Below, one piece after another: positions 1 through 7,394 of a stretch of 8,362 bases of DNA (its first letter is position 1; the number at the start of each line of letters is the position of its first letter). The notes under the pieces are model-generated. The model did not search any database. It worked only from the letters and a program-made list of their open reading frames with translations, and was not told where the DNA came from. Where the stretch lies: the IMG/VR virus record IMGVR_UViG_2675903621_000020, positions 1 to 8,362 of that record; one strand, given 5' to 3'. This DNA comes from a virus. Its lineage: Duplodnaviria > Heunggongvirae > Uroviricota > Caudoviricetes. A program made the translations under genes and the position numbers.

Positions 1-61
1 CGATGATCTGGCAGCCTGAGTTCACAGATAAAACACTCTCCAGGAAAACCGGGGCGGTTCA
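1..61 (+). mobile_element. Right terminus of an IS3-family insertion sequence (IS629-like); the element continues beyond the window start
   Basis: Reverse complement of 1-61 begins TGAACCGCCCCGGTTTTCCTGGAGAG, an imperfect inverted copy of the IS left end at 8280 (TGAACCGCCCCGGGAATCCTGGAGAC). Terminal 5'-TG...CA-3' as in IS3-family ends. The yeeJ reading frame is lost exactly at this junction (61/62). Family name is from memory. Confidence 0.7.
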
Positions 62-1449
62 TTATAGCCTTTCAGGGCATATTTGGTTTGTAGCGACGAA
101 ACCAGTGATTTCACTTCTCCTGACTTCCCTGTCACGGGGTCTGTCAGGGTCAGGCGAACCAGTTCTTTTTTGCGATATTCCAGAACGATGTTGTTGTTGC
201 GATCCACCAGATCAAAACGGCTGCCTGCAAGGCTACGCCGTGCATCGACTTCATTCGGGTCAAGCTGTTTCTGCATCGCGCTTCCAGGTTGCCAGGTAAA
301 ATCGACGGCAAAACGGGTGTCATTTTCGCCCTGTTTACCCTAGCGTTGCTCCGCGCTGAAGGTCATCAGCGGGAAGGGGGTATAGTTAAGTCCAGCGGTT
401 ATGGCATGAGGATTACTTTGCCGATCATCTTTATCGAACAGGGCCACTTCATCGCCATAATACTGTTCATAGACCAGTTTACCGCCAAGGTGCGGCCAGG
501 CGGGTAGCCAGCCTTCTGCGCGTACATCCCAGCCATTGGCCGGGCGTGCTTCATAATCGTTGTCCAGTTCAGGTGCGCTGCGCCAGTTGGTCAGTCGCAA
601 ATAGCCGTTACTGCTTAATTTTAGATAGTCGCGCCAGTACTCCGCGCCAATGCCGGCGCGGGAGTGGTAACGGCTAAGATCGTGGTCGAAAAAGAAGTTG
701 ATGCCCGACATCCATGTGGGAGTGAAATGACGCCAACCCAAGCCGTTGTTAATCTGCGTACGCTCGTCAGTACGATGGAGAGTATGCTGACTGAAAAAGA
801 GATTATCAGGCGTTTCATACCACGGATGGAGAAAATCGAACTGGGAGTTCTTCAGGCTAAAATCTTCATCCACGCCCAGCGTGATTCTTGCGGTACCGAA
901 GCGGCTTAACCAGTCTGTCATTGCGCCTGAAGCCTGAGAAGAGGCCCATCCACGCGCCATATTTGCCGCTTGCTCGCTGTTCATATCCTCGGCGAGCAGA
1001 GACCCGATTTGCTGTGAAGTACTGGCTATCTGTTGCTCAAGGTTGCCACTGCTATTACCCGGTGGCGGGGTTAAATTATTTTCACTAACTTGTGCCGGGA
1101 CATCCAGTTCATCACCCTGGCGGACATTATCAAAACCTCGAGCAAACGTACGAAACTGGTTGAGTTTGCGTAACTCAGCCACCGAAATACCGAAACGTTC
1201 GGCAACGCTTTGGGCCGATTCCAGCGCTCCAAGGGTGTAGGGCACCGTATTGGCATTTGCAATGGCAATTTGTGTAGGAACTGGTTGTTGGGTTGCGGCG
1301 TTTACCACACCTTGTGCTGCCGCAGCCATAGGGAACACAAGTTGAGTTATCAGGCAGATACCCGCAGTTAAGCGGCGTAGTTTAATTCCCATCCCGCATA
1401 AGATTTGTCGGTCATTTATTTCTTCTCCACTTCTCTTCTTCGTAGCCAT
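62..1449 (-). pseudogene. yeeJ: 5' portion of an intimin/invasin-family inverse-autotransporter adhesin gene (yeeJ-like), interrupted by an in-frame TAG and truncated by the IS
   Basis: Minus-strand ORF 340-1524 in the track. ATG at 1449 has a GGAAGG Shine-Dalgarno 5 nt upstream (alternative ATG at 1476). Long signal-peptide-like N-terminus (…LTAGICLITQLVFPMAAAAQG), LysM-like segment (FGISVAELRKLNQF), then a Trp/Tyr/Gly-rich beta-barrel-like region. An in-frame TAG (plus-strand cta at 340-342) stops the frame, which resumes in the same frame to the IS junction at 61/62. Synteny with tRNA-Asn and mtfA matches my memory of E. coli K-12. Confidence 0.7.
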
Positions 1450-1646
1450 GCTTACCTTCCCTGAACGAGCTAACATAAATGCGCCCTTTCTAGCACAGCG
1501 AAAAAATGTAAATCCTGATAGCAATATGATTGAAAATTAATAACTTTTCGTTAGGCAGTTTTGGATGTGAGTTGCAAGAGGGGAGACTACTGAATAACTC
1601 AAGTTTTATAATCGAGGGGAAAATGGTGATGGCGTTCATAGCAAAA

Positions 1647-1673
1647 CGCCCTCAACCATAAAGGTCGAGGGCG
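1647..1673 (-). terminator. Candidate hairpin downstream of tRNA-Asn (possible asnT terminator)
   Basis: 7-bp inverted repeat CGCCCTC/GAGGGCG with a 13-nt loop. On the minus strand it is followed by TTTTG. A second hairpin GGCGTT-N8-AACGCC sits at 1631-1650. The loop is large and the T-run short, so confidence is low. Confidence 0.3.
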
Positions 1674-1762
1674 CTTAAGATGTTAAAAACCCGCTATCCG
1701 TTAAAAAACAATGTTCAACTAAGGTCAGTGACATTGCGCTAAAAAAGCGAATTTTTAGAATT

Positions 1763-1838
1763 TGGCTCCTCTGACTGGACTCGAACCAGTGACATACGGA
1801 TTAACAGTCCGCCGTTCTACCGACTGAACTACAGAGGA
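1763..1838 (-). tRNA. asnT: tRNA-Asn (anticodon GUU), 76 nt with encoded CCA
   Basis: Reverse complement reads TCCTCTGTAGTTCAGTCGGTAGAACGGCGGACTGTTAATCCGTATGTCACTGGTTCGAGTCCAGTCAGAGGAGCCA. 7-bp acceptor stem, anticodon loop CT-GTT-AA, T-loop GGTTCGAGTCC. The asnT name is assigned from position between mtfA and yeeJ. Confidence 0.93.
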
Positions 1839-1856
1839 ATCGTGTGAACGGGGCGC

Positions 1857-1885
1857 ATATTACTTAGCGGTACCTTGTCTGTCAA
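1857..1885 (-). promoter_or_regulatory. Sigma70 promoter for tRNA-Asn
   Basis: Minus strand reads TTGACA (1885-1880), a 17-nt spacer, TAATAT (1862-1857), then the GC-rich discriminator GCGCCCC. This sits about 19 nt upstream of the mature tRNA 5' end. AT-rich sequence lies further upstream, including a GTTAATTAAT direct repeat at 1914-1923 and 1934-1943. Confidence 0.55.
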
Positions 1886-1938
1886 CACTAAATTTCATAA
1901 GTCATTTCAATTGGTTAATTAATCTGCAAAGTTGTTAA

Positions 1939-2736
1939 TTAATGAACATTCGTCGCCGAAAACGAGTCTGTATCATTAGCGTGATGCAGTCTCTGCAAAG
2001 GATCTTGTTGATAAAATTGGCAGAAACGTTGCCACAATGAAGGGAAACGAGGAGCAAAAAGTTCTGGGGCGCTAAAGAAATATTCAGAAAGTACGGCAAA
2101 ACATTCAGCAGGATCACTGGCAGCATAAGCATCAATGCTCGCCGCATTCTCGCCAACCAATTCGATTTCTTCCTGAATGTTGTTCATTGCAGCATGAAGA
2201 TCGTGTTCCCAGCCAGCAACCTCACGCAACGGAATAAAGGGAACTCCGCTGGCGCGATCGCCGTTACGGGTGTCCAGCTTATGAGCGACTTCATGAATAA
2301 TCAGGTTAAAACCAGAAGCATCAAAAGAATCTTGTATATCCAACCAGTTCAAAACGATAGGCCCTTGCTGCCAGCTCTGACCTGACTGAACAATACGTTG
2401 GTTATGCACCAGACCGATATCGTCTTCCCATTCATCATCGACCACAAATGGCGCAGGATAAATTAAGACTTCATGAAAACCATCCAGCCATTCCAGTCCT
2501 AACTCCAGAACGGGTAGGCAAAATAGAAGTGCTATCCGGCAGCTTCTTAATGAATCCAGTTCAAAGCCCTGTAAAGGAACAAGCCGCTTTTGCTGTAAAA
2601 AACGTTCGGCAAGAGTGACTAATTTGCTTTGTTCCTGTTCCGTCAGACACGTTAAAAGGGGGATCGATAGTGCTTCCTGCCAGGGAAGGGCAGTTTGATG
2701 TGCTGATTCTTGTACTTTCCAGGGCCACTTAATCAT
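1939..2736 (-). CDS. mtfA: MtfA (Mlc titration factor A), zinc-metallopeptidase fold, 265 aa
   Basis: ORF with ATG at 2736 (the track ORF extends to a GTG at 2775). Protein begins [28 protein letters not shown] and contains the HExxH motif ([10 protein letters not shown]). Stop TAA at 1939-1941. Recognised from memory as MtfA/YeeI. Confidence 0.9.
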
Positions 2737-2829
2737 CGTTTTGCTCGCAAACTCGTCACTTGAACAAAATTGCACGGACAGGGACTGTTAAAATGCCAAA
2801 TTTCCTGGCATCATGGCAACCATCTGAAC

Positions 2830-2919
2830 GGAGAGATGCCGGAGCGGCTGAACGGACCGGTCTCGAAAACCGGAGTGGGGGCAACTCCACCGGGGGTTCA
2901 AATCCCCCTCTCTCCGCCA
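2830..2919 (+). tRNA. serU: tRNA-Ser (anticodon CGA), 90 nt with long variable arm and encoded CCA
   Basis: GGAGAGATGCCGGAGCGGCTGAACGGACCGGTCTCGAAAACCGGAGTGGGGGCAACTCCACCGGGGGTTCAAATCCCCCTCTCTCCGCCA. 7-bp acceptor stem GGAGAGA/TCTCTCC, anticodon loop CT-CGA-AA, T-loop GGTTCAAATCC. The serU name is assigned from anticodon and position beside mtfA. Confidence 0.9.
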
Positions 2920-2998
2920 AAATTCAATCACTTACACGCCATCAAGTCAGTGATAAAAATCACACTTGGAATTACTTGGAATATTTTGTTGGAATATT
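2920..2998. other. Candidate prophage attL arm between the tRNA-Ser 3' end and the int 3' end
   Basis: The integrase reads toward the tRNA 3' end, the standard tRNA-integrated prophage layout. Three direct repeats (C/G)TTGGAAT(A/T)T at 2965-2972, 2975-2982 and 2989-2995 lie where lambda P' arm-type Int sites would be. An ATCACT-N16-AGTGAT inverted repeat (2926-2953) with an IHF-like ATCAA element lies between them and the tRNA. The core cannot be delimited without attR or an empty site. Confidence 0.4.
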
Positions 2999-3997
2999 CT
3001 GGGGTAAAGGTACATCCAGTGTAGGTGAGATCTTCACTTTCCTGTCATAGATTAATACCTGTCCTTCGGTCTTGTGACCAGAGAAAAGTTGTTTATCCCG
3101 GCTACTACCTTCGTAATCTGATATCCCCTTGGCTTTAAGGTCATGGAACGTAAAATCGGTGGCGATCCCAGATATCTGTCCTGCTAAATTTCTTGCCTCA
3201 ACCCACATTTCATTAAATCCTTTATACATGTAACGGTTGCCGTACTGATTGCTGATTACATAGGCCGACTTGGGGAGTTGTTTGGCTTTTTCTATAACTG
3301 ATTGCAGGCGGGGGCTCCAGGCTTTTATCTGTTTCTTTCCTGTTTTACCTTGCTGGATAAAGATCCCATCGTTTCCGATCTGTTCCCATTTCAGAGATAA
3401 CACATCGGAAATCCTTGCTGCGCACAGATATGCAATTTCCATCGCGATAAAAACAGGCACAGGAGCCACGCTTAATACGGCCTGGTATTCTTTGTCAGTC
3501 ACATAGCGCTCTCGGTTTTTTGCCTTGAATTTACTTACACCGGCACAAGGATTAGCCTTTACATACCCTCGTTCATACCCCCAACTATAAACGCGCGACA
3601 TACTGCTTTTTTCATGGTTTGCCTGCGTTTTACTCTGCTCGCCTCTTTTGTCCATGTATCGTCTGATGTGCTCTGGTTTTACAGAATCGGCCAGCACCTT
3701 ACCGAATACGGCCAGCAACTTTTTTTGATGTTGCAGATAATCTTTTTGAGTTCTAGGACTAAGCTCGCTGTAATAGGCGCTGGCGAGAAATTTTTCCCAC
3801 AAACGCCCAAATGTCATTGCGCGATCGCGATGGTTAACCGTTTCTTCATACTTTTTCCATAATGCGGCTAAACCATCCTCGATTGCAGTTAAGGTTACAG
3901 ATTCTCTGGATGTCGGTTTCCATACATAACTATATTTATTGGGGTATACCTTTGGCGGTAATTTTTCGTGTTCGGGATTTTTCCTTCGTCTTCCCAT
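2972..3997 (-). CDS. int: Lambda-family tyrosine integrase, 341 aa
   Basis: ORF with ATG at 3997 and TAA at 2972-2974. N-terminus MGRRRKNPEHEKLPPKVYPNKYSYVWKP resembles the lambda Int arm-binding N-terminus (MGRRRSHERRDLPPNLY…, from memory). C-terminal catalytic region has HDLK and GHK…Y elements (FTFHDLKAKG…LFSGHKTEGQVLIYDR). Confidence 0.92.
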   Translation of the reverse strand: MGRRRKNPEHEKLPPKVYPNKYSYVWKPTSRESVTLTAIEDGLAALWKKYEETVNHRDRAMTFGRLWEKFLASAYYSELSPRTQKDYLQHQKKLLAVFGKVLADSVKPEHIRRYMDKRGEQSKTQANHEKSSMSRVYSWGYERGYVKANPCAGVSKFKAKNRERYVTDKEYQAVLSVAPVPVFIAMEIAYLCAARISDVLSLKWEQIGNDGIFIQQGKTGKKQIKAWSPRLQSVIEKAKQLPKSAYVISNQYGNRYMYKGFNEMWVEARNLAGQISGIATDFTFHDLKAKGISDYEGSSRDKQLFSGHKTEGQVLIYDRKVKISPTLDVPLPQNIPTKYSK

Positions 3998-4200
3998 TAG
4001 ATCGCACCGAAATCAGGTTCAGCCTCACGTGGTGGTAAAGTTTTTATACAGGTAAACAGTTCCCGACTGACGATCGGTTTTCCACTACGATTGGTATAGA
4101 ACGGAAGCCCATTTTTTATTAACCAGTTGCGCTGGTGGCTTGCATATTTGCAGCCCGTTAACGTTTGCAATTCATTTTCGGTTAAAAATATGCTGCTCAT
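3997..4200 (-). CDS. xis: Excisionase (Xis-like), 67 aa
   Basis: ATG at 4200. Stop TAA (3999-3997) overlaps the int ATG (3997-3995) as TAATG, indicating translational coupling. Small basic protein with a Trp-containing motif (…QRNWLIKNGLPFY…) loosely alignable to lambda Xis. Directly upstream of int. Confidence 0.7.
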   Translation of the reverse strand: MSSIFLTENELQTLTGCKYASHQRNWLIKNGLPFYTNRSGKPIVSRELFTCIKTLPPREAEPDFGAI

Positions 4201-4216
4201 AGCTATATCTCACAAC

Positions 4217-4244
4217 CGCCGCTAACTATATGCCGTTAGCGGCG
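4217..4244 (-). other. GC-rich stem-loop in the 58-nt gap between the exonuclease-domain gene and xis
   Basis: Perfect 10-bp inverted repeat CGCCGCTAAC (4217-4226) / GTTAGCGGCG (4235-4244) with an 8-nt loop. It lies 16 nt upstream of the xis ATG and is not followed by a U-run on the transcribed strand. Confidence 0.45.
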
Positions 4245-4258
4245 ATCCGGGTTGAACA

Positions 4259-6676
4259 TTAAAAATCAGCCTGACTCGGGATCAGTTTTTGCCAGATGGC
4301 TGAAACGTATTTTGCCTGGTAACGCGCATCGTGCAGGGCGTTATGGCGTTCACCTTCGAATGGAATAGTCGTTCTTGCGTCGAAATCCATCACCAGTCCC
4401 AGAGCAACCATCGTTCTTACATCGCGATCATTGGTGTAACGCCACGGGCAGGGGATCCCCTGCCGTTCATATGAACGGCGTAAAATCACGTTGTCGAAAG
4501 TTGCACCGTTACCCCAGACCTGAACAAAAAATTCACCGGAGTTTTCGTCGATAAATTCCCGTAATTGCAGCAGTGCATCATCCAACGGGATTTCATCGGT
4601 CAGAATGGAGGATTGTGCTTCGCGTGACTGTTTCAGCCACCACTTAATGGTGTCCCGATCGATGACCCCGCCTGCGGTTTCCAGATCGATAGTTTTGCTG
4701 AATTCTGGCCCCATATCTCCGGTTGCCGGATCAAAAAACTTACCGGCTATAGCGTTTATTGGCGCATCAGGATTTTTTCCCATTGCTTCAAGGTCAATCA
4801 TCAGATGGTGCCACAACCTGCTGGTGGATGAGATTTCATGATGACCGTTCACTTTAATTAAGGGATTTGCTGTTTCGCCAGTTTTATTATCGCTGGCGTG
4901 ATACTGATCGCTGCCAGTGTTCTCCTTGTGCAGATGTTCAGTGCCTTCCATTTCCTCCGGATCATTTTTCTGAGCTTCAGCCTGATTCTCTTCATCGAAT
5001 GTTTCCTGGTAGGTTGCGTTCCCCATCACCGCACTACAGTCAGGACAGTTGCCGCCACCGGTCTGACCACATGTGGTGCAAACTTTTTCTGGTTCTTGTT
5101 GCACTACTGGTTCTGGTTGTTTTGTTTTTGGCTCGTTTTGTAACGCATTTGGGCTGTTTTGTTCCGCTTTATCCTGATTCTGGTCATCATCATCGCGACT
5201 CTGGATCCCCTTCACCCATTTTGGATCATTCGGGTCGCTAATCCCTTCAACAAATTCTCCGCGAGAAGCAGCCAGTAATTTATCTGCATCGACAGGATTT
5301 TTGGGTGGAATGTTTTTCTTGGCTTCATGGAGTTCTGCACGCAGTTTCTGATATTTCGCATCAACAGAATTTATCTGTGGCTGAGCATCCATCGACTGCG
5401 TGTCCTGATTATGTTCAGTTGTATCCGGTTCCACTGCTTCAGTCGTTGCCTGTTCATCTGCCATTGCGCCAGATGGCTGCGGTTTTTCTTCATCATCCTG
5501 TTTTCCTTCTTTTGTTACACGCTGCGGCATCGGGGCAGAGGAGCGGCCACAGGCAATATCCACGATTTCCGGATCAGGGGTGGCATGATCGGTTTCAGTC
5601 AGCACCTTATTCAGGTATTCGGTGACACGGTGGGGAGTAGCCTCTATACCAATTGGTGCTTCTTTCACGGACGCAACCACGATGGCGCGGGAGTAATCCT
5701 TGTGGCCCGGCATGGTGATGAATTTGCTGAAAAACACAGTAAATGGCGGTTTATTTTCAGCGATAATTTCCTCAATGCGTTTAGCGTGTGCGGGATGAAG
5801 GTTATAAATATCCACGTCCATTGAACGGGCCAGTACGCCAGTGGCTACGTCACGCGCCACTGACGCATCATCGTGGACAAAACCTTCGCCGCGATCGGTA
5901 AGAATGCCGCCGCCAGCGTTAGCGCCGGATGGCGTGCGGCTGATGCGTGAAACACTATTTCCTTTCATCCACTCTTTTGTAAGCAGACCGCGATCGGTGT
6001 AGTCAGCGCCCAGGTATGCTTCGATAAAAGAGGTCATCAGTCCCAGGTCCGAATTTACGGGGGCGGGGAAAACTTTGTCAGTGTCTCGCACCAGTTTGTA
6101 CAAATCCCGAATCTCCAGCGGTTCGAGTTGCACTGCTTTATTTGAGATGGCCAGCGCGGTAACGGCGGGAAGTTTTTCATCCTGTGCGTTATGTAATGCG
6201 CGCAGTTTGTCCAGTGAAACGTGCGTGACCGGTTTTTCGCTGTTGTGTTGCGCCAGCCAGCGAACAGGCAGAATCTGACCTGAAACCGGAAGAAGCATAT
6301 TCTCCTCAATCTTAGCCATGTCTTCGCCGTTGACGTTGGTATTGTCAGTACTGGCTGGTTTGTCCGGAACAGAGGGCGCGATAAGTATCATTGTGATACC
6401 ATCTTCTCCGCCTTTTTCGTATCGGTTGCAGAATTCAGTATCAAACACACCTTCCGGTGGAAGGTCATTCACAACGGGTAAATGGACGCGGATGGGTTTT
6501 TTAAAATCCTCTTCGTCAAATCCGGCATCGTCCATTGCAGCAACACCGCGTGATATTGCAACCGATAATTTTTTTGCTGTGCGCCAGTAAAAACCACCTT
6601 TAATCCCAAGGCGTTTTCTGACTTTGTCATTTTTGGCTTCGTAATATAGTGCAATTTCTTCTTTATCAGCGTTCAT
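4259..6676 (-). CDS. 805-aa multidomain prophage protein: N-terminal domain of unknown function, acidic disordered linker with a CxxC-x7-CxxC knuckle, C-terminal DEDDh (DnaQ-like) 3'-5' exonuclease domain
   Basis: ATG at 6676 with a GAGG Shine-Dalgarno 7 nt upstream; TAA at 4259-4261. The C-terminal ~185 aa carry motifs in canonical order: Exo I DxE (MIDLE, res. 628-630, or TIDLETAGG, 664-666), Exo II ([13 protein letters not shown]728), Exo III H-x4-D (HNALHD, H778/D783). Residues ~385-620 are D/E/Q/P/K-rich low complexity containing C533-x2-C536-x7-C544-x2-C547. Confidence 0.85.
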
Positions 6677-6768
6677 TGATAAACCTCATAACCATTTTAA
6701 GGATGAACAAATTCCTGCCATTGCTGGTATTTTTAATCCGTTGGTATGGCGTTAATATGGCTGGAGGG

Positions 6769-6957
6769 TTATCCAGCCGGTATTTCGTTATTCAGGTTCA
6801 GCGACACTTTTTTTAACGGGAGGCATTCACCGGGGATTTTTTGTTCGTCCCTTACCTGAATGCAGGATGACTTACTGTCATAAATTCCGGTAATTACATT
6901 CTGCGGCTCACCCGTTATAAGAAAAACGGTCATCACCAGTGCAAATGCTGAGGTCAC
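6769..6957 (-). CDS. Small hypothetical protein (62 aa) with a hydrophobic N-terminus, coupled to the upstream small ORF
   Basis: GTG start at 6957 overlaps the upstream stop as GTGA. GGAG Shine-Dalgarno 5 nt upstream. N-terminus MTSAFALVMTVFLITG is signal/TM-like; two Cys. Stop TAA at 6769-6771. A 54-aa variant would start at ATG 6933. I recognise no homolog. Confidence 0.4.
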   Translation of the reverse strand: MTSAFALVMTVFLITGEPQNVITGIYDSKSSCIQVRDEQKIPGECLPLKKVSLNLNNEIPAG

Positions 6958-7142
6958 TGCTGTTCTCCGAAAATACCAAGTTCAAGAAGAGCAATTCGGG
7001 AAAGTATGGAATTATCATTGAGCAGATAAGGCTCATATTTCCGCATATTAATGGCATCCTCAGTAAACGCTTTATTACTGAGCAGAACACCAATATCAAA
7101 ACAACCTTCAGACGTATTAACGTTTGGTAATAACGTTTCCAT
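6954..7142 (-). CDS. Small hypothetical protein (62 aa), first gene of the leftward operon
   Basis: ATG at 7142 with a strong Shine-Dalgarno GAGGA 7 nt upstream (minus strand …TTGAGGACGCGATA-ATG). Protein METLLPNVNTSEGCFDIGVLLSNKAFTEDAINMRKYEPYLLNDNSILSRIALLELGIFGEQQ. Stop TGA at 6954-6956. The track ORF extends upstream to a GTG at 7247 with no ribosome-binding site. Confidence 0.5.
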   Translation of the reverse strand: METLLPNVNTSEGCFDIGVLLSNKAFTEDAINMRKYEPYLLNDNSILSRIALLELGIFGEQQ

Positions 7143-7159
7143 TATCGCGTCCTCAACAA

Positions 7160-7307
7160 TGAATTTTGTGATGCAGTGCCTGGTGCCTCCAGGTGACGTT
7201 AACCAGTTAACAATTAACGCCGGATACAGAGAATCCACCCATAACACTGTTTTTGGTTTTAACTGTTCCGCGTGCGCTTAGCCGCATTCACCGCATCACA
7301 AAATTCA
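7160..7307. repeat. Perfect 15-bp inverted repeat pair flanking a 118-bp segment next to the leftward operon start
   Basis: TGAATTTTGTGATGC at 7160-7174 and its reverse complement GCATCACAAAATTCA at 7293-7307 (17 of 18 with one flanking base each side). The left arm abuts the Shine-Dalgarno of ORF 6954-7142. The enclosed segment contains GTTAAC-ca-GTTAAC-aa-TTAAC (7198-7218). Confidence 0.6.
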
Positions 7308-7394
7308 CTTTAAAAAGGGCGGCAGAGCAGTCACGGAGTAAAACTGATACCGCCAAATGTCACCAGAAAATTGATAACAGAGGGCGTTGTAGCG

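Follow-up and report, generated by a model that had tools for sequence, protein, structure and literature searches.

A predicted chimeric exonuclease with a RecE-type scaffold and a DexA-like DEDDh domain in a dicBF-type operon of a lambda-like Escherichia coli prophage

The stretch of DNA analysed here, referred to as the window (8,362 nucleotides, positions 1 to 8,362 of the IMG/VR virus record IMGVR_UViG_2675903621_000020), contains the left end of a lambda-like prophage located in serU of Escherichia coli O55:H7. The gene at 4259..6676 on the minus strand, with its ATG at 6676 and its stop codon at 4259–4261, encodes a protein of 805 aa that is annotated as 'exonuclease' (WP_000990641.1), and 100% identical copies of the 2418-nt gene are present in E. 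coli O55:H7 genomes, e.g. CB9615. Judged from sequence comparison, the protein is a chimera, in which the nuclease of RecE is replaced at the domain boundary by a DEDDh 3'-5' exonuclease. No annealase gene was recognized in the prophage, and related fused genes are found in early regions that are rich in Chi sites on one strand and likewise have no recognized annealase.

Domain architecture, prevalence and selection

The N-terminal part of the protein is similar to RecE (exonuclease VIII) of the Rac prophage. In a BLASTP comparison with K-12 RecE, aa 58–607 correspond to RecE residues 50–591 at 73% identity, with no RecE similarity beyond aa 607, and the NCBIfam equivalog model for exonuclease VIII (NF007259) aligns aa 1–607 to its positions 1–602 of 877 with 1036 bits against a cut-off of 1269, the score being under the cut-off because the last third of the model (positions 603–877) is unmatched. 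The C-terminal domain of RecE, at about residues 600–866, is a PD-(D/E)XK 5'-3' nuclease, and the break at aa 607 (RecE 591) lies close to what we take to be the start of the crystallised catalytic fragment of RecE. An earlier reading made from the sequence only had placed the open reading frame (ORF) 58 bp from xis, called its first ~600 aa RecE-like and suggested that the catalytic module had been swapped. The coordinates and the RecE likeness are borne out, and since the RecE match ends at the boundary of the nuclease domain, the suggested swap is correct as well.

Three regions can be distinguished in the protein. The RecE-type scaffold, aa 1–375 (5552..6676, minus strand), contains PF06630 at aa 56–187 (E 1.8e-24) and has an occupancy of at least 90% among 36 aligned full-length homologs of the fused type plus K-12 RecE. 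It is followed by an acidic low-complexity linker, aa ~376–620 (4817..5551, minus strand), delimited by its composition, which is poor in hydrophobic residues, and by alignments to RecE and to the exonuclease of phage Tritos. The occupancy of the linker varies among homologs, and from ~aa 463 onwards it is common to RecE and to the YdfE-type (Tritos) proteins. Within the linker, a CxxC-x7-CxxC zinc knuckle (C533, C536, C544 and C547; 5036..5080, minus strand) was read from the translation, and none of its four cysteines varies among 116 close homologs. The sequence-only reading had pointed out both the acidic linker and the knuckle; they are present, but not as a new feature, because RecE residues 518–532 carry the same knuckle and the linker is found in RecE as well, indicating that both were inherited from the RecE part. 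In the longer fused homologs of 823–833 aa (L041, L045, L050, L052 and L085; Citrobacter and Phytobacter) a helical segment of the scaffold seems to be duplicated internally, as judged by eye from the pattern ...LRQRLLAQ...ELDxDNxYVQNLLLAxxN....

A D12-class Dam methylase encoded in a P2-like context (L116 5187–6167, minus strand), beside the gene of the E. coli DexA homologue EcD that is described below, ends with the same zinc-knuckle module. As the C-terminus of this methylase, RecE and the window protein all carry it, the knuckle may represent a small portable module of DNA-acting phage proteins.

The C-terminal domain (aa 621–805; 4262..4816, minus strand) matches PF16473 (Rv2179c-like) at aa 623–795 over the whole model (positions 1–177 of 177), with an E-value of 1.1e-60 and 204.8 bits against a gathering threshold of 27. 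The Exo I (DxE), Exo II (D) and Exo III (Hx4D) motifs are all present, with D628 and E630 in MIDLEA, D728 in ATFDN, and H778 and D783 in HNALHD, and these five DEDDh residues align one-to-one with the catalytic residues D7, E9, D119, H186 and D191 of T4 DexA. When the sequences of the Protein Data Bank (PDB) were searched with the single sequence only T4 DexA was matched (8KEL and 8KEN; E 2e-4), and a profile made from 56 diverse family members found DexA over its full length at E 1.7e-22, with DnaQ and oligoribonucleases next at 4e-6 or worse; Rv2179c itself was not among the matches of either of these PDB searches. Four of the five catalytic columns are invariant among the 56 sequences, and the column of D783 has D in 55 of them. 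The AlphaFold2 model of the domain, based on the same alignment, has a predicted local distance difference test (pLDDT) score of 94.4 and a predicted template modelling (pTM) score of 0.90, and with Foldseek against the PDB it retrieved DexA first (E 1.4e-11, TM 0.77), followed by RNase T and Orn. The closest solved relative of aa 621–805 is T4 DexA, and by motifs, profile and predicted fold the region is an intact DEDDh exonuclease domain. The DEDDh motifs named in the sequence-only reading are thereby located at the catalytic positions of DexA, in a domain predicted to have the DnaQ fold.

The gene is not rare. With a coverage of at least 80% it is present in 653 of 5426 complete E. coli genomes, while DNA of the nuclease domain is found in 4061 of the 5426, with up to 7 copies per genome. 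Both Pfam domains are assigned in public records, under names such as 'exonuclease' or "3'-5' exonuclease", and PHROGs families cover the gene. The PF16473-type family is very large, with 10,740 of the 50%-identity clusters searched matching at E 0.001 or better; most of its members are standalone proteins of ~180–190 aa, and the closest relatives of the window protein are long fused proteins. PF06630 and PF16473 occur together in 8 of 10 long representatives, and in other Enterobacterales this holds for nuclease domains with identities as low as ~52%, indicating that the fusion is old and has been maintained. A literature search found nothing on Rv2179c-type proteins in prophages, nor on an exonuclease of ydfE-dicB. 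The gene is common, annotated and catalogued at census level.

The ratio of nonsynonymous to synonymous substitution rates (dN/dS) of the nuclease domain is 0.10–0.11 in four comparisons; the two comparisons with sufficient divergence give 0.17 and 0.30 for the scaffold, and the linker has 0.24–0.33. By these ratios the nuclease domain is under purifying selection. Between the window and the allele of strain O103:H2 12009 (L119 3001–5418) the synonymous divergence (dS) is 0.008 in the scaffold and 0.72 in the nuclease domain, indicating recombination within the gene with the breakpoint in the linker.

Annealase genes, Chi sites and the dicBF-type operon

The sequence-only reading had noted that no annealase gene could follow the exonuclease gene before xis, and this extends to the whole prophage: its annotation contains nothing like RecT, Bet, Erf or Sak4, and no annealase was detected by Pfam among its ORFs of unknown function. 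For a wider view, 80 related loci were taken from species-representative genomes, 23 of them with a fused gene (at least 600 aa) and 50 with a standalone gene, the fused loci spanning Escherichia, Klebsiella, Kluyvera, Citrobacter, Dryocola, Buttiauxella, Atlantibacter, Enterobacter and Phytobacter. In tblastn searches with RecT, Bet, Erf, Sak4, Gam, Abc2 and SSB none of the 23 fused loci gave a match. A repressor gene is located 0.9–2.8 kb upstream of the exonuclease gene in 22 of the fused loci, and in 20 of these 22 the largest ORF on the same strand in the interval has at most 128 aa. The one large exception is L026 with a same-strand ORF of 310 aa belonging to phrog_6603 (unknown function), a single locus in which an annealase might be hidden.

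Standalone genes are located directly after Sak4-SSB (L049 and L051) or after Erf with or without SSB (L031, L043, L056 and L058), and in one case directly before Abc2 (L044). Many other standalone homologs (L019, L021, L024, L036 and others) follow genes for a DUF2303 (YfdQ-like) protein and a YfdR-like HD 5'-deoxynucleotidase (phrog_318), and are themselves followed by xis and int; this recurrent module has no recognized annealase and is also Chi-rich.

In the 46.4 kb of the window's prophage the late-gene ('top') strand carries 7 Chi sites (GCTGGTGG) and the opposite strand 2. The window includes three of the 7, at 4131..4138, at 4820..4827 within the exonuclease gene, and at 7845..7852, all on the plus strand. 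The early regions of the 23 fused loci, ~10 kb each and 229 kb together, contain 96 top-strand and 23 bottom-strand Chi sites against an expectation of 3.8 on each strand from base composition (strand bias, binomial p 8.5e-12), and an abundance of Chi on one strand is seen in every one of the 23. Among the standalone loci, those with Sak4, Erf or Abc2 contain a single Chi site in 44 kb. A module with the nuclease and no annealase is already listed as the 'Tritos' class, in which the nuclease is present, annealase, SSB and anti-RecBCD genes are absent, and all four phages are Chi-rich with counts from 21/6 to 7/2; abundant Chi was also reported to correlate with a missing anti-RecBCD function (PMC12315714).

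The exonuclease gene is the last one before xis and int in an early-left operon of the dicBF type, with the order DicF, DicB, YdfD-like protein and exonuclease. Upstream on the same strand are the YdfD-like DUF1482 gene (6769..6957, minus strand; Pfam E 2.8e-15), whose GTG start overlaps the stop codon of dicB, then dicB itself (6954..7142, minus strand), encoding the cell-division inhibitor of 62 aa (Pfam E 2.4e-36, NCBIfam above cut-off, and annotation), the gene of the small RNA DicF (7317..7368, minus strand; Rfam RF00039 with 77 bits against a gathering score of 48), a DUF1391 gene and a gene for a DicA-like helix-turn-helix repressor; the annotation of the prophage has the helix-turn-helix repressor and a Cro-like gene. 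The ORF of 97 aa that a program lists at 6954–7247 (minus strand) is too long for dicB, as Pfam and RefSeq start at M36 (nt 7142), which gives the 62-aa DicB. The two small ORFs upstream of the exonuclease gene, which the sequence-only reading had grouped with it as a possible accessory or defence-type module, are indeed adjacent, but they are dicB and the YdfD-like gene of a known operon. The gene for the excisionase (DUF4224; 3997..4200, minus strand; Pfam and PHROG) begins 58 bp downstream of the exonuclease gene, and is followed by the tyrosine integrase gene (2972..3997, minus strand; Pfam and annotation).

By synteny with K-12 the window gene is located at the position of ydfE, and the same gene order is found in Tritos, vB_EcoS-689R5, PPompW, O103:H2 12009 and strain KY179, the operon of O103:H2 12009 being at the Qin site beside rspB. 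The ydfABC-dicF-dicB-ydfDE operon of K-12 is transcribed from dicBp, a promoter like lambda PL that is repressed by DicA, and besides DicF and DicB the only characterised member is YdfD (PMC10448788). A search for an internal promoter gave one weak match, 9 of 12 positions at 6721–6694, and fewer promoter-like sites than in shuffled sequence. The exonuclease gene is consequently treated as a member of the operon, and with the operon repressed by DicA the protein should be made only upon derepression or induction.

Predicted function and alternatives

The standalone relatives are located within recombination (Rec) modules, genes for annealases and anti-RecBCD functions are missing, and the context is Chi-rich. 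On these grounds the protein is tentatively predicted, with a probability of about 0.4, to be a DNA 3'-end exonuclease that takes part in the DNA metabolism of the lytic cycle alongside the host RecBCD-Chi-RecA pathway. The enzyme would be Mg-dependent and act on DNA 3' ends during lytic growth, and unlike RecE it would not make 3' tails for a phage annealase. It might for example shorten 3' tails until the ends are near-blunt, as RecBCD requires, with the RecE scaffold serving as a targeting or assembly module that does not depend on the nuclease. Trimming of 3' tails to near-blunt ends is carried out by the 3'-5' single-strand exonucleases of the host, as known from the genetics of ExoI and SbcCD.

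Several points weigh against this prediction. The end-blunting role is an analogy drawn from the ExoI and SbcCD genetics of the host. The scaffold gave a poor AlphaFold2 model (8-sequence alignment; pLDDT 61, pTM 0.36, confident at aa 1–100 only), and this poor model had no Foldseek match in the PDB at E below about 1. The link to Chi may reflect only the missing anti-RecBCD gene, with the nuclease uninvolved, and a 3'-5' exonuclease usually inhibits recombination (PMC12315714). Finally, in the closest alleles, with 93% identity, a catalytic residue is changed: K replaces E630 (MIDLKTMG) in 44 of 116 full-length close homologs, which is the entire 93%-identity allele group (proteins P0013–P0059 and the O103:H2 12009 allele, one sequence being present on at least 1000 contigs), so these counts represent shared descent and not independent events. 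Two divergent proteins, P0130 and P0137, also have K at the position of E630 and have lost the Asp of Exo II, and P0137 is without the Asp of Exo III too, yet both keep full-length ORFs. Such losses in full-length ORFs indicate that the nuclease activity is dispensable in some prophages.

A more general but doubtful proposal would be that the N-terminal 600 residues of RecE are a portable module that brings a nuclease of either polarity, 5'-3' in RecE with RecT and 3'-5' in the window protein, to one common DNA substrate or host partner; with the 3'-5' nuclease the phage would co-opt host RecBCD-Chi-RecA and encode no annealase. Under this proposal the recurrent catalytically dead alleles would be 3'-end binders, by analogy to the SbcB15 form of ExoI, and if the protein served in exclusion it would be an exclusion nuclease triggered by derepression.

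The foremost competing explanation, which we consider unlikely, is that of an exclusion or defence nuclease, which on derepression of the operon would degrade the modified DNA of competing phages or the 3' ends of RNA phages, and which would complement the DicB block of ManXYZ-dependent phage DNA entry. EcD, a standalone protein with 38% identity, degrades T4 DNA and protects against T4 (PMC12153337), prophage- and plasmid-encoded DEDDh exonucleases that carry auxiliary domains act in defence against MS2 and Qbeta (PMC13344964), DicB from the same operon protects against phages (PMC10448788, PMC6832061), and the gene adjoins int. The residues speak against it: W152 and D169 of DexA are reported to be needed for recognition of 5-hydroxymethylcytosine (5hmC), and the tetramer residue D90 is absent in EcD, with A78 in its place (PMC12153337), while in the window protein the first two positions are not kept (T748 and V762) and D90 is retained as D700, so that membership of the HREX type is not supported on these residues. 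PADLOC-DB 2.0 gave no significant match, the sole hit having an E-value of 0.028 over 23 residues. Furthermore, the operon is under DicA-type repression in lysogens (PMC10448788), thus a resting lysogen would not be protected, and the strict tie to Chi-rich genomes without annealase has no obvious rationale in defence.

It is less probable still that the enzyme is a host-takeover nuclease, degrading host DNA or broken DNA to supply phage replication with nucleotides in the way that T4 DexA scavenges. The nearest solved relative has this scavenging role (PMC12153337), and many standalone homologs share an operon with the YfdR-like 5'-deoxynucleotidase of phrog_318, but this neighbour is absent from the fused loci and the RecE scaffold would be left without a reason. 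Lambdoid phages are not known to degrade host DNA.

About equally improbable is that the protein acts as a scaffold or by binding 3' ends, with catalysis secondary, or that it is a decaying passenger of defective prophages. The fixed E630K change in the 93%-identity group and the lost catalytic residues of the full-length P0130 and P0137 would agree with this, as would the frameshifts or insertion sequence (IS) elements that disrupt the gene in PPompW, K-12 ydfE and PV16-126. The low dN/dS of the nuclease domain is difficult to reconcile with it, the window and most lineages retain all five catalytic residues, and the gene is intact in Tritos, HannyBb and mEp460, which are isolated viable phages.

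The least likely of the alternatives is a 3'-5' exoribonuclease acting on phage or host RNA, e.g. by trimming the polycistronic transcript that contains DicF, since DexA, a DNA enzyme, is far ahead both by profile (1.7e-22 versus 4e-6) and by structure and standalone homologs are located beside genes for SSB, annealases and Abc2, even though the Pfam family is named after an exoribonuclease (Rv2179c), RNase T and oligoribonuclease rank next by structure and the gene is co-transcribed with a small RNA derived by processing (PMC10448788).

With a nuclease domain found in about three-quarters of complete E. coli genomes, and within the well-studied dicBF operon, the gene offers a natural experiment on RecE: the same scaffold with a nuclease of opposite polarity and no annealase. 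That the scaffold can carry such a nuclease without an annealase argues for the scaffold as an independent module, whose function can now be approached by swapping and deletion. The Chi-rich setting without Gam and annealase connects the gene with the recently proposed reliance of many lambdoid phages on host RecBCD, and makes its product a candidate for a phage-encoded helper or modulator of the host RecBCD pathway. Alleles in prophages of Shiga toxin-producing E. coli that differ at the catalytic residue could matter for induction and for recombination among lambdoid prophages.

Other features of the window and comparison with known systems

In the window the start of a yeeJ-like adhesin pseudogene comes first, followed by tRNA-Asn, mtfA, tRNA-Ser(CGA) and the left end of the prophage. 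The tRNA-Ser(CGA) gene (2830..2919, plus strand; ARAGORN and Rfam) is serU, the attachment site, and the prophage has a size of ~46 kb, reaching from int to an end with tail-fibre and espJ/EspF-repeat effector genes. The interval 340–1524 (minus strand) covers the N-terminal part of a very large yeeJ-type gene for an adhesin with immunoglobulin-like domains and includes a LysM-like region; in CB9615 the gene is a RefSeq pseudogene with an internal stop codon. On the opposite strand within the early-left operon, at 7684–8199 (plus strand), is an ORF of 171 aa with a coiled-coil N-terminal part and a C-terminal CxxC pair (phrog_1244, unknown function), whose position is that of sieB in lambda and Rac; the family recurs between the repressor and exonuclease genes in the fused loci L013 and L055. 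Between its replication genes and Q the window's prophage also has a SIR2-family gene and hokD (L001 27452–28938), which are likely accessory (moron) or defence cargo.

The likeness to the TONDOs, DEDDh exonucleases with auxiliary domains that are encoded on prophages and plasmids and defend against MS2 and Qbeta (PMC13344964), is one of description only: both have a DEDDh exonuclease together with a variable auxiliary domain. The TONDO candidates were found with human ISG20 as query, and only BLAST hits under 500 aa were examined (PMC13344964).

With T4 DexA (8KEL and 8KEN) all five catalytic residues are shared but the identity is only ~21–24%, and DexA is a standalone protein of 227 aa with extra loops from a lytic phage, whereas the window gene belongs to a temperate phage. 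Closer is EcD (EcD/HREX), the homologue of DexA from E. coli with degrading activity on T4 DNA and 5hmC DNA (PMC12153337), which was recovered here via the published primers, its 3' end fitting the reverse primer but for one base. The gene is an ORF of 189 aa starting with MIDTET and with A at position 78, as stated in the publication (PMC12153337); translation probably begins four codons further upstream (MNHLMIDTET). EcD is 38% identical to aa 626–798 of the window protein (183 aa, E 1e-31) and has the same PF16473-type domain, but it is standalone, with W at the position of DexA W152 and A at that of D90 where the window protein has T748 and D700. It is located in the early operon of P2-like prophages, flanked by Cox and Int and, at its other side, by Dam and gpA, and loci of this kind are present on viral contigs (L113 5682–6248 and L116 6404–6970, both minus strand, L095, L100, L110 and L111). 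This location between cox-like and integrase genes and Dam and gpA indicates that EcD is a prophage gene.

RecE of Rac shares the scaffold, the acidic linker and the zinc knuckle with the window protein, and both genes are located in a lambdoid early-left operon just upstream of xis and int. The window protein differs in that the C-terminal nuclease of RecE is missing, that it stays below the NF007259 cut-off, and that no recT is nearby.

The ydfE gene in Qin of K-12 has the same place after dicB-ydfD and before int, but is a pseudogene while the window gene is intact. A direct homology to K-12 YdfE was considered and rejected, since there is no significant similarity, and the link is positional only. 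A further known system is the Tritos class, which like the window's prophage has the nuclease without annealase, SSB or anti-RecBCD genes and is Chi-rich. DnaQ-like nucleases have been described in lambdoid Rec modules, and the chimeric architecture is not discussed in the main text of that publication (PMC12315714). The operon order DicF-DicB-YdfD-exonuclease-xis-int of Tritos is the same as in the window, and the linker from ~aa 463 and the DEDDh domain are shared. The N-terminus of the Tritos protein is of the YdfE type, with 99% identity to residues 1–256 of K-12 YdfE, indicating that ydfE of Qin is what IS2 truncation left of the same positional gene, whereas the N-terminus of the window protein is of the RecE type.

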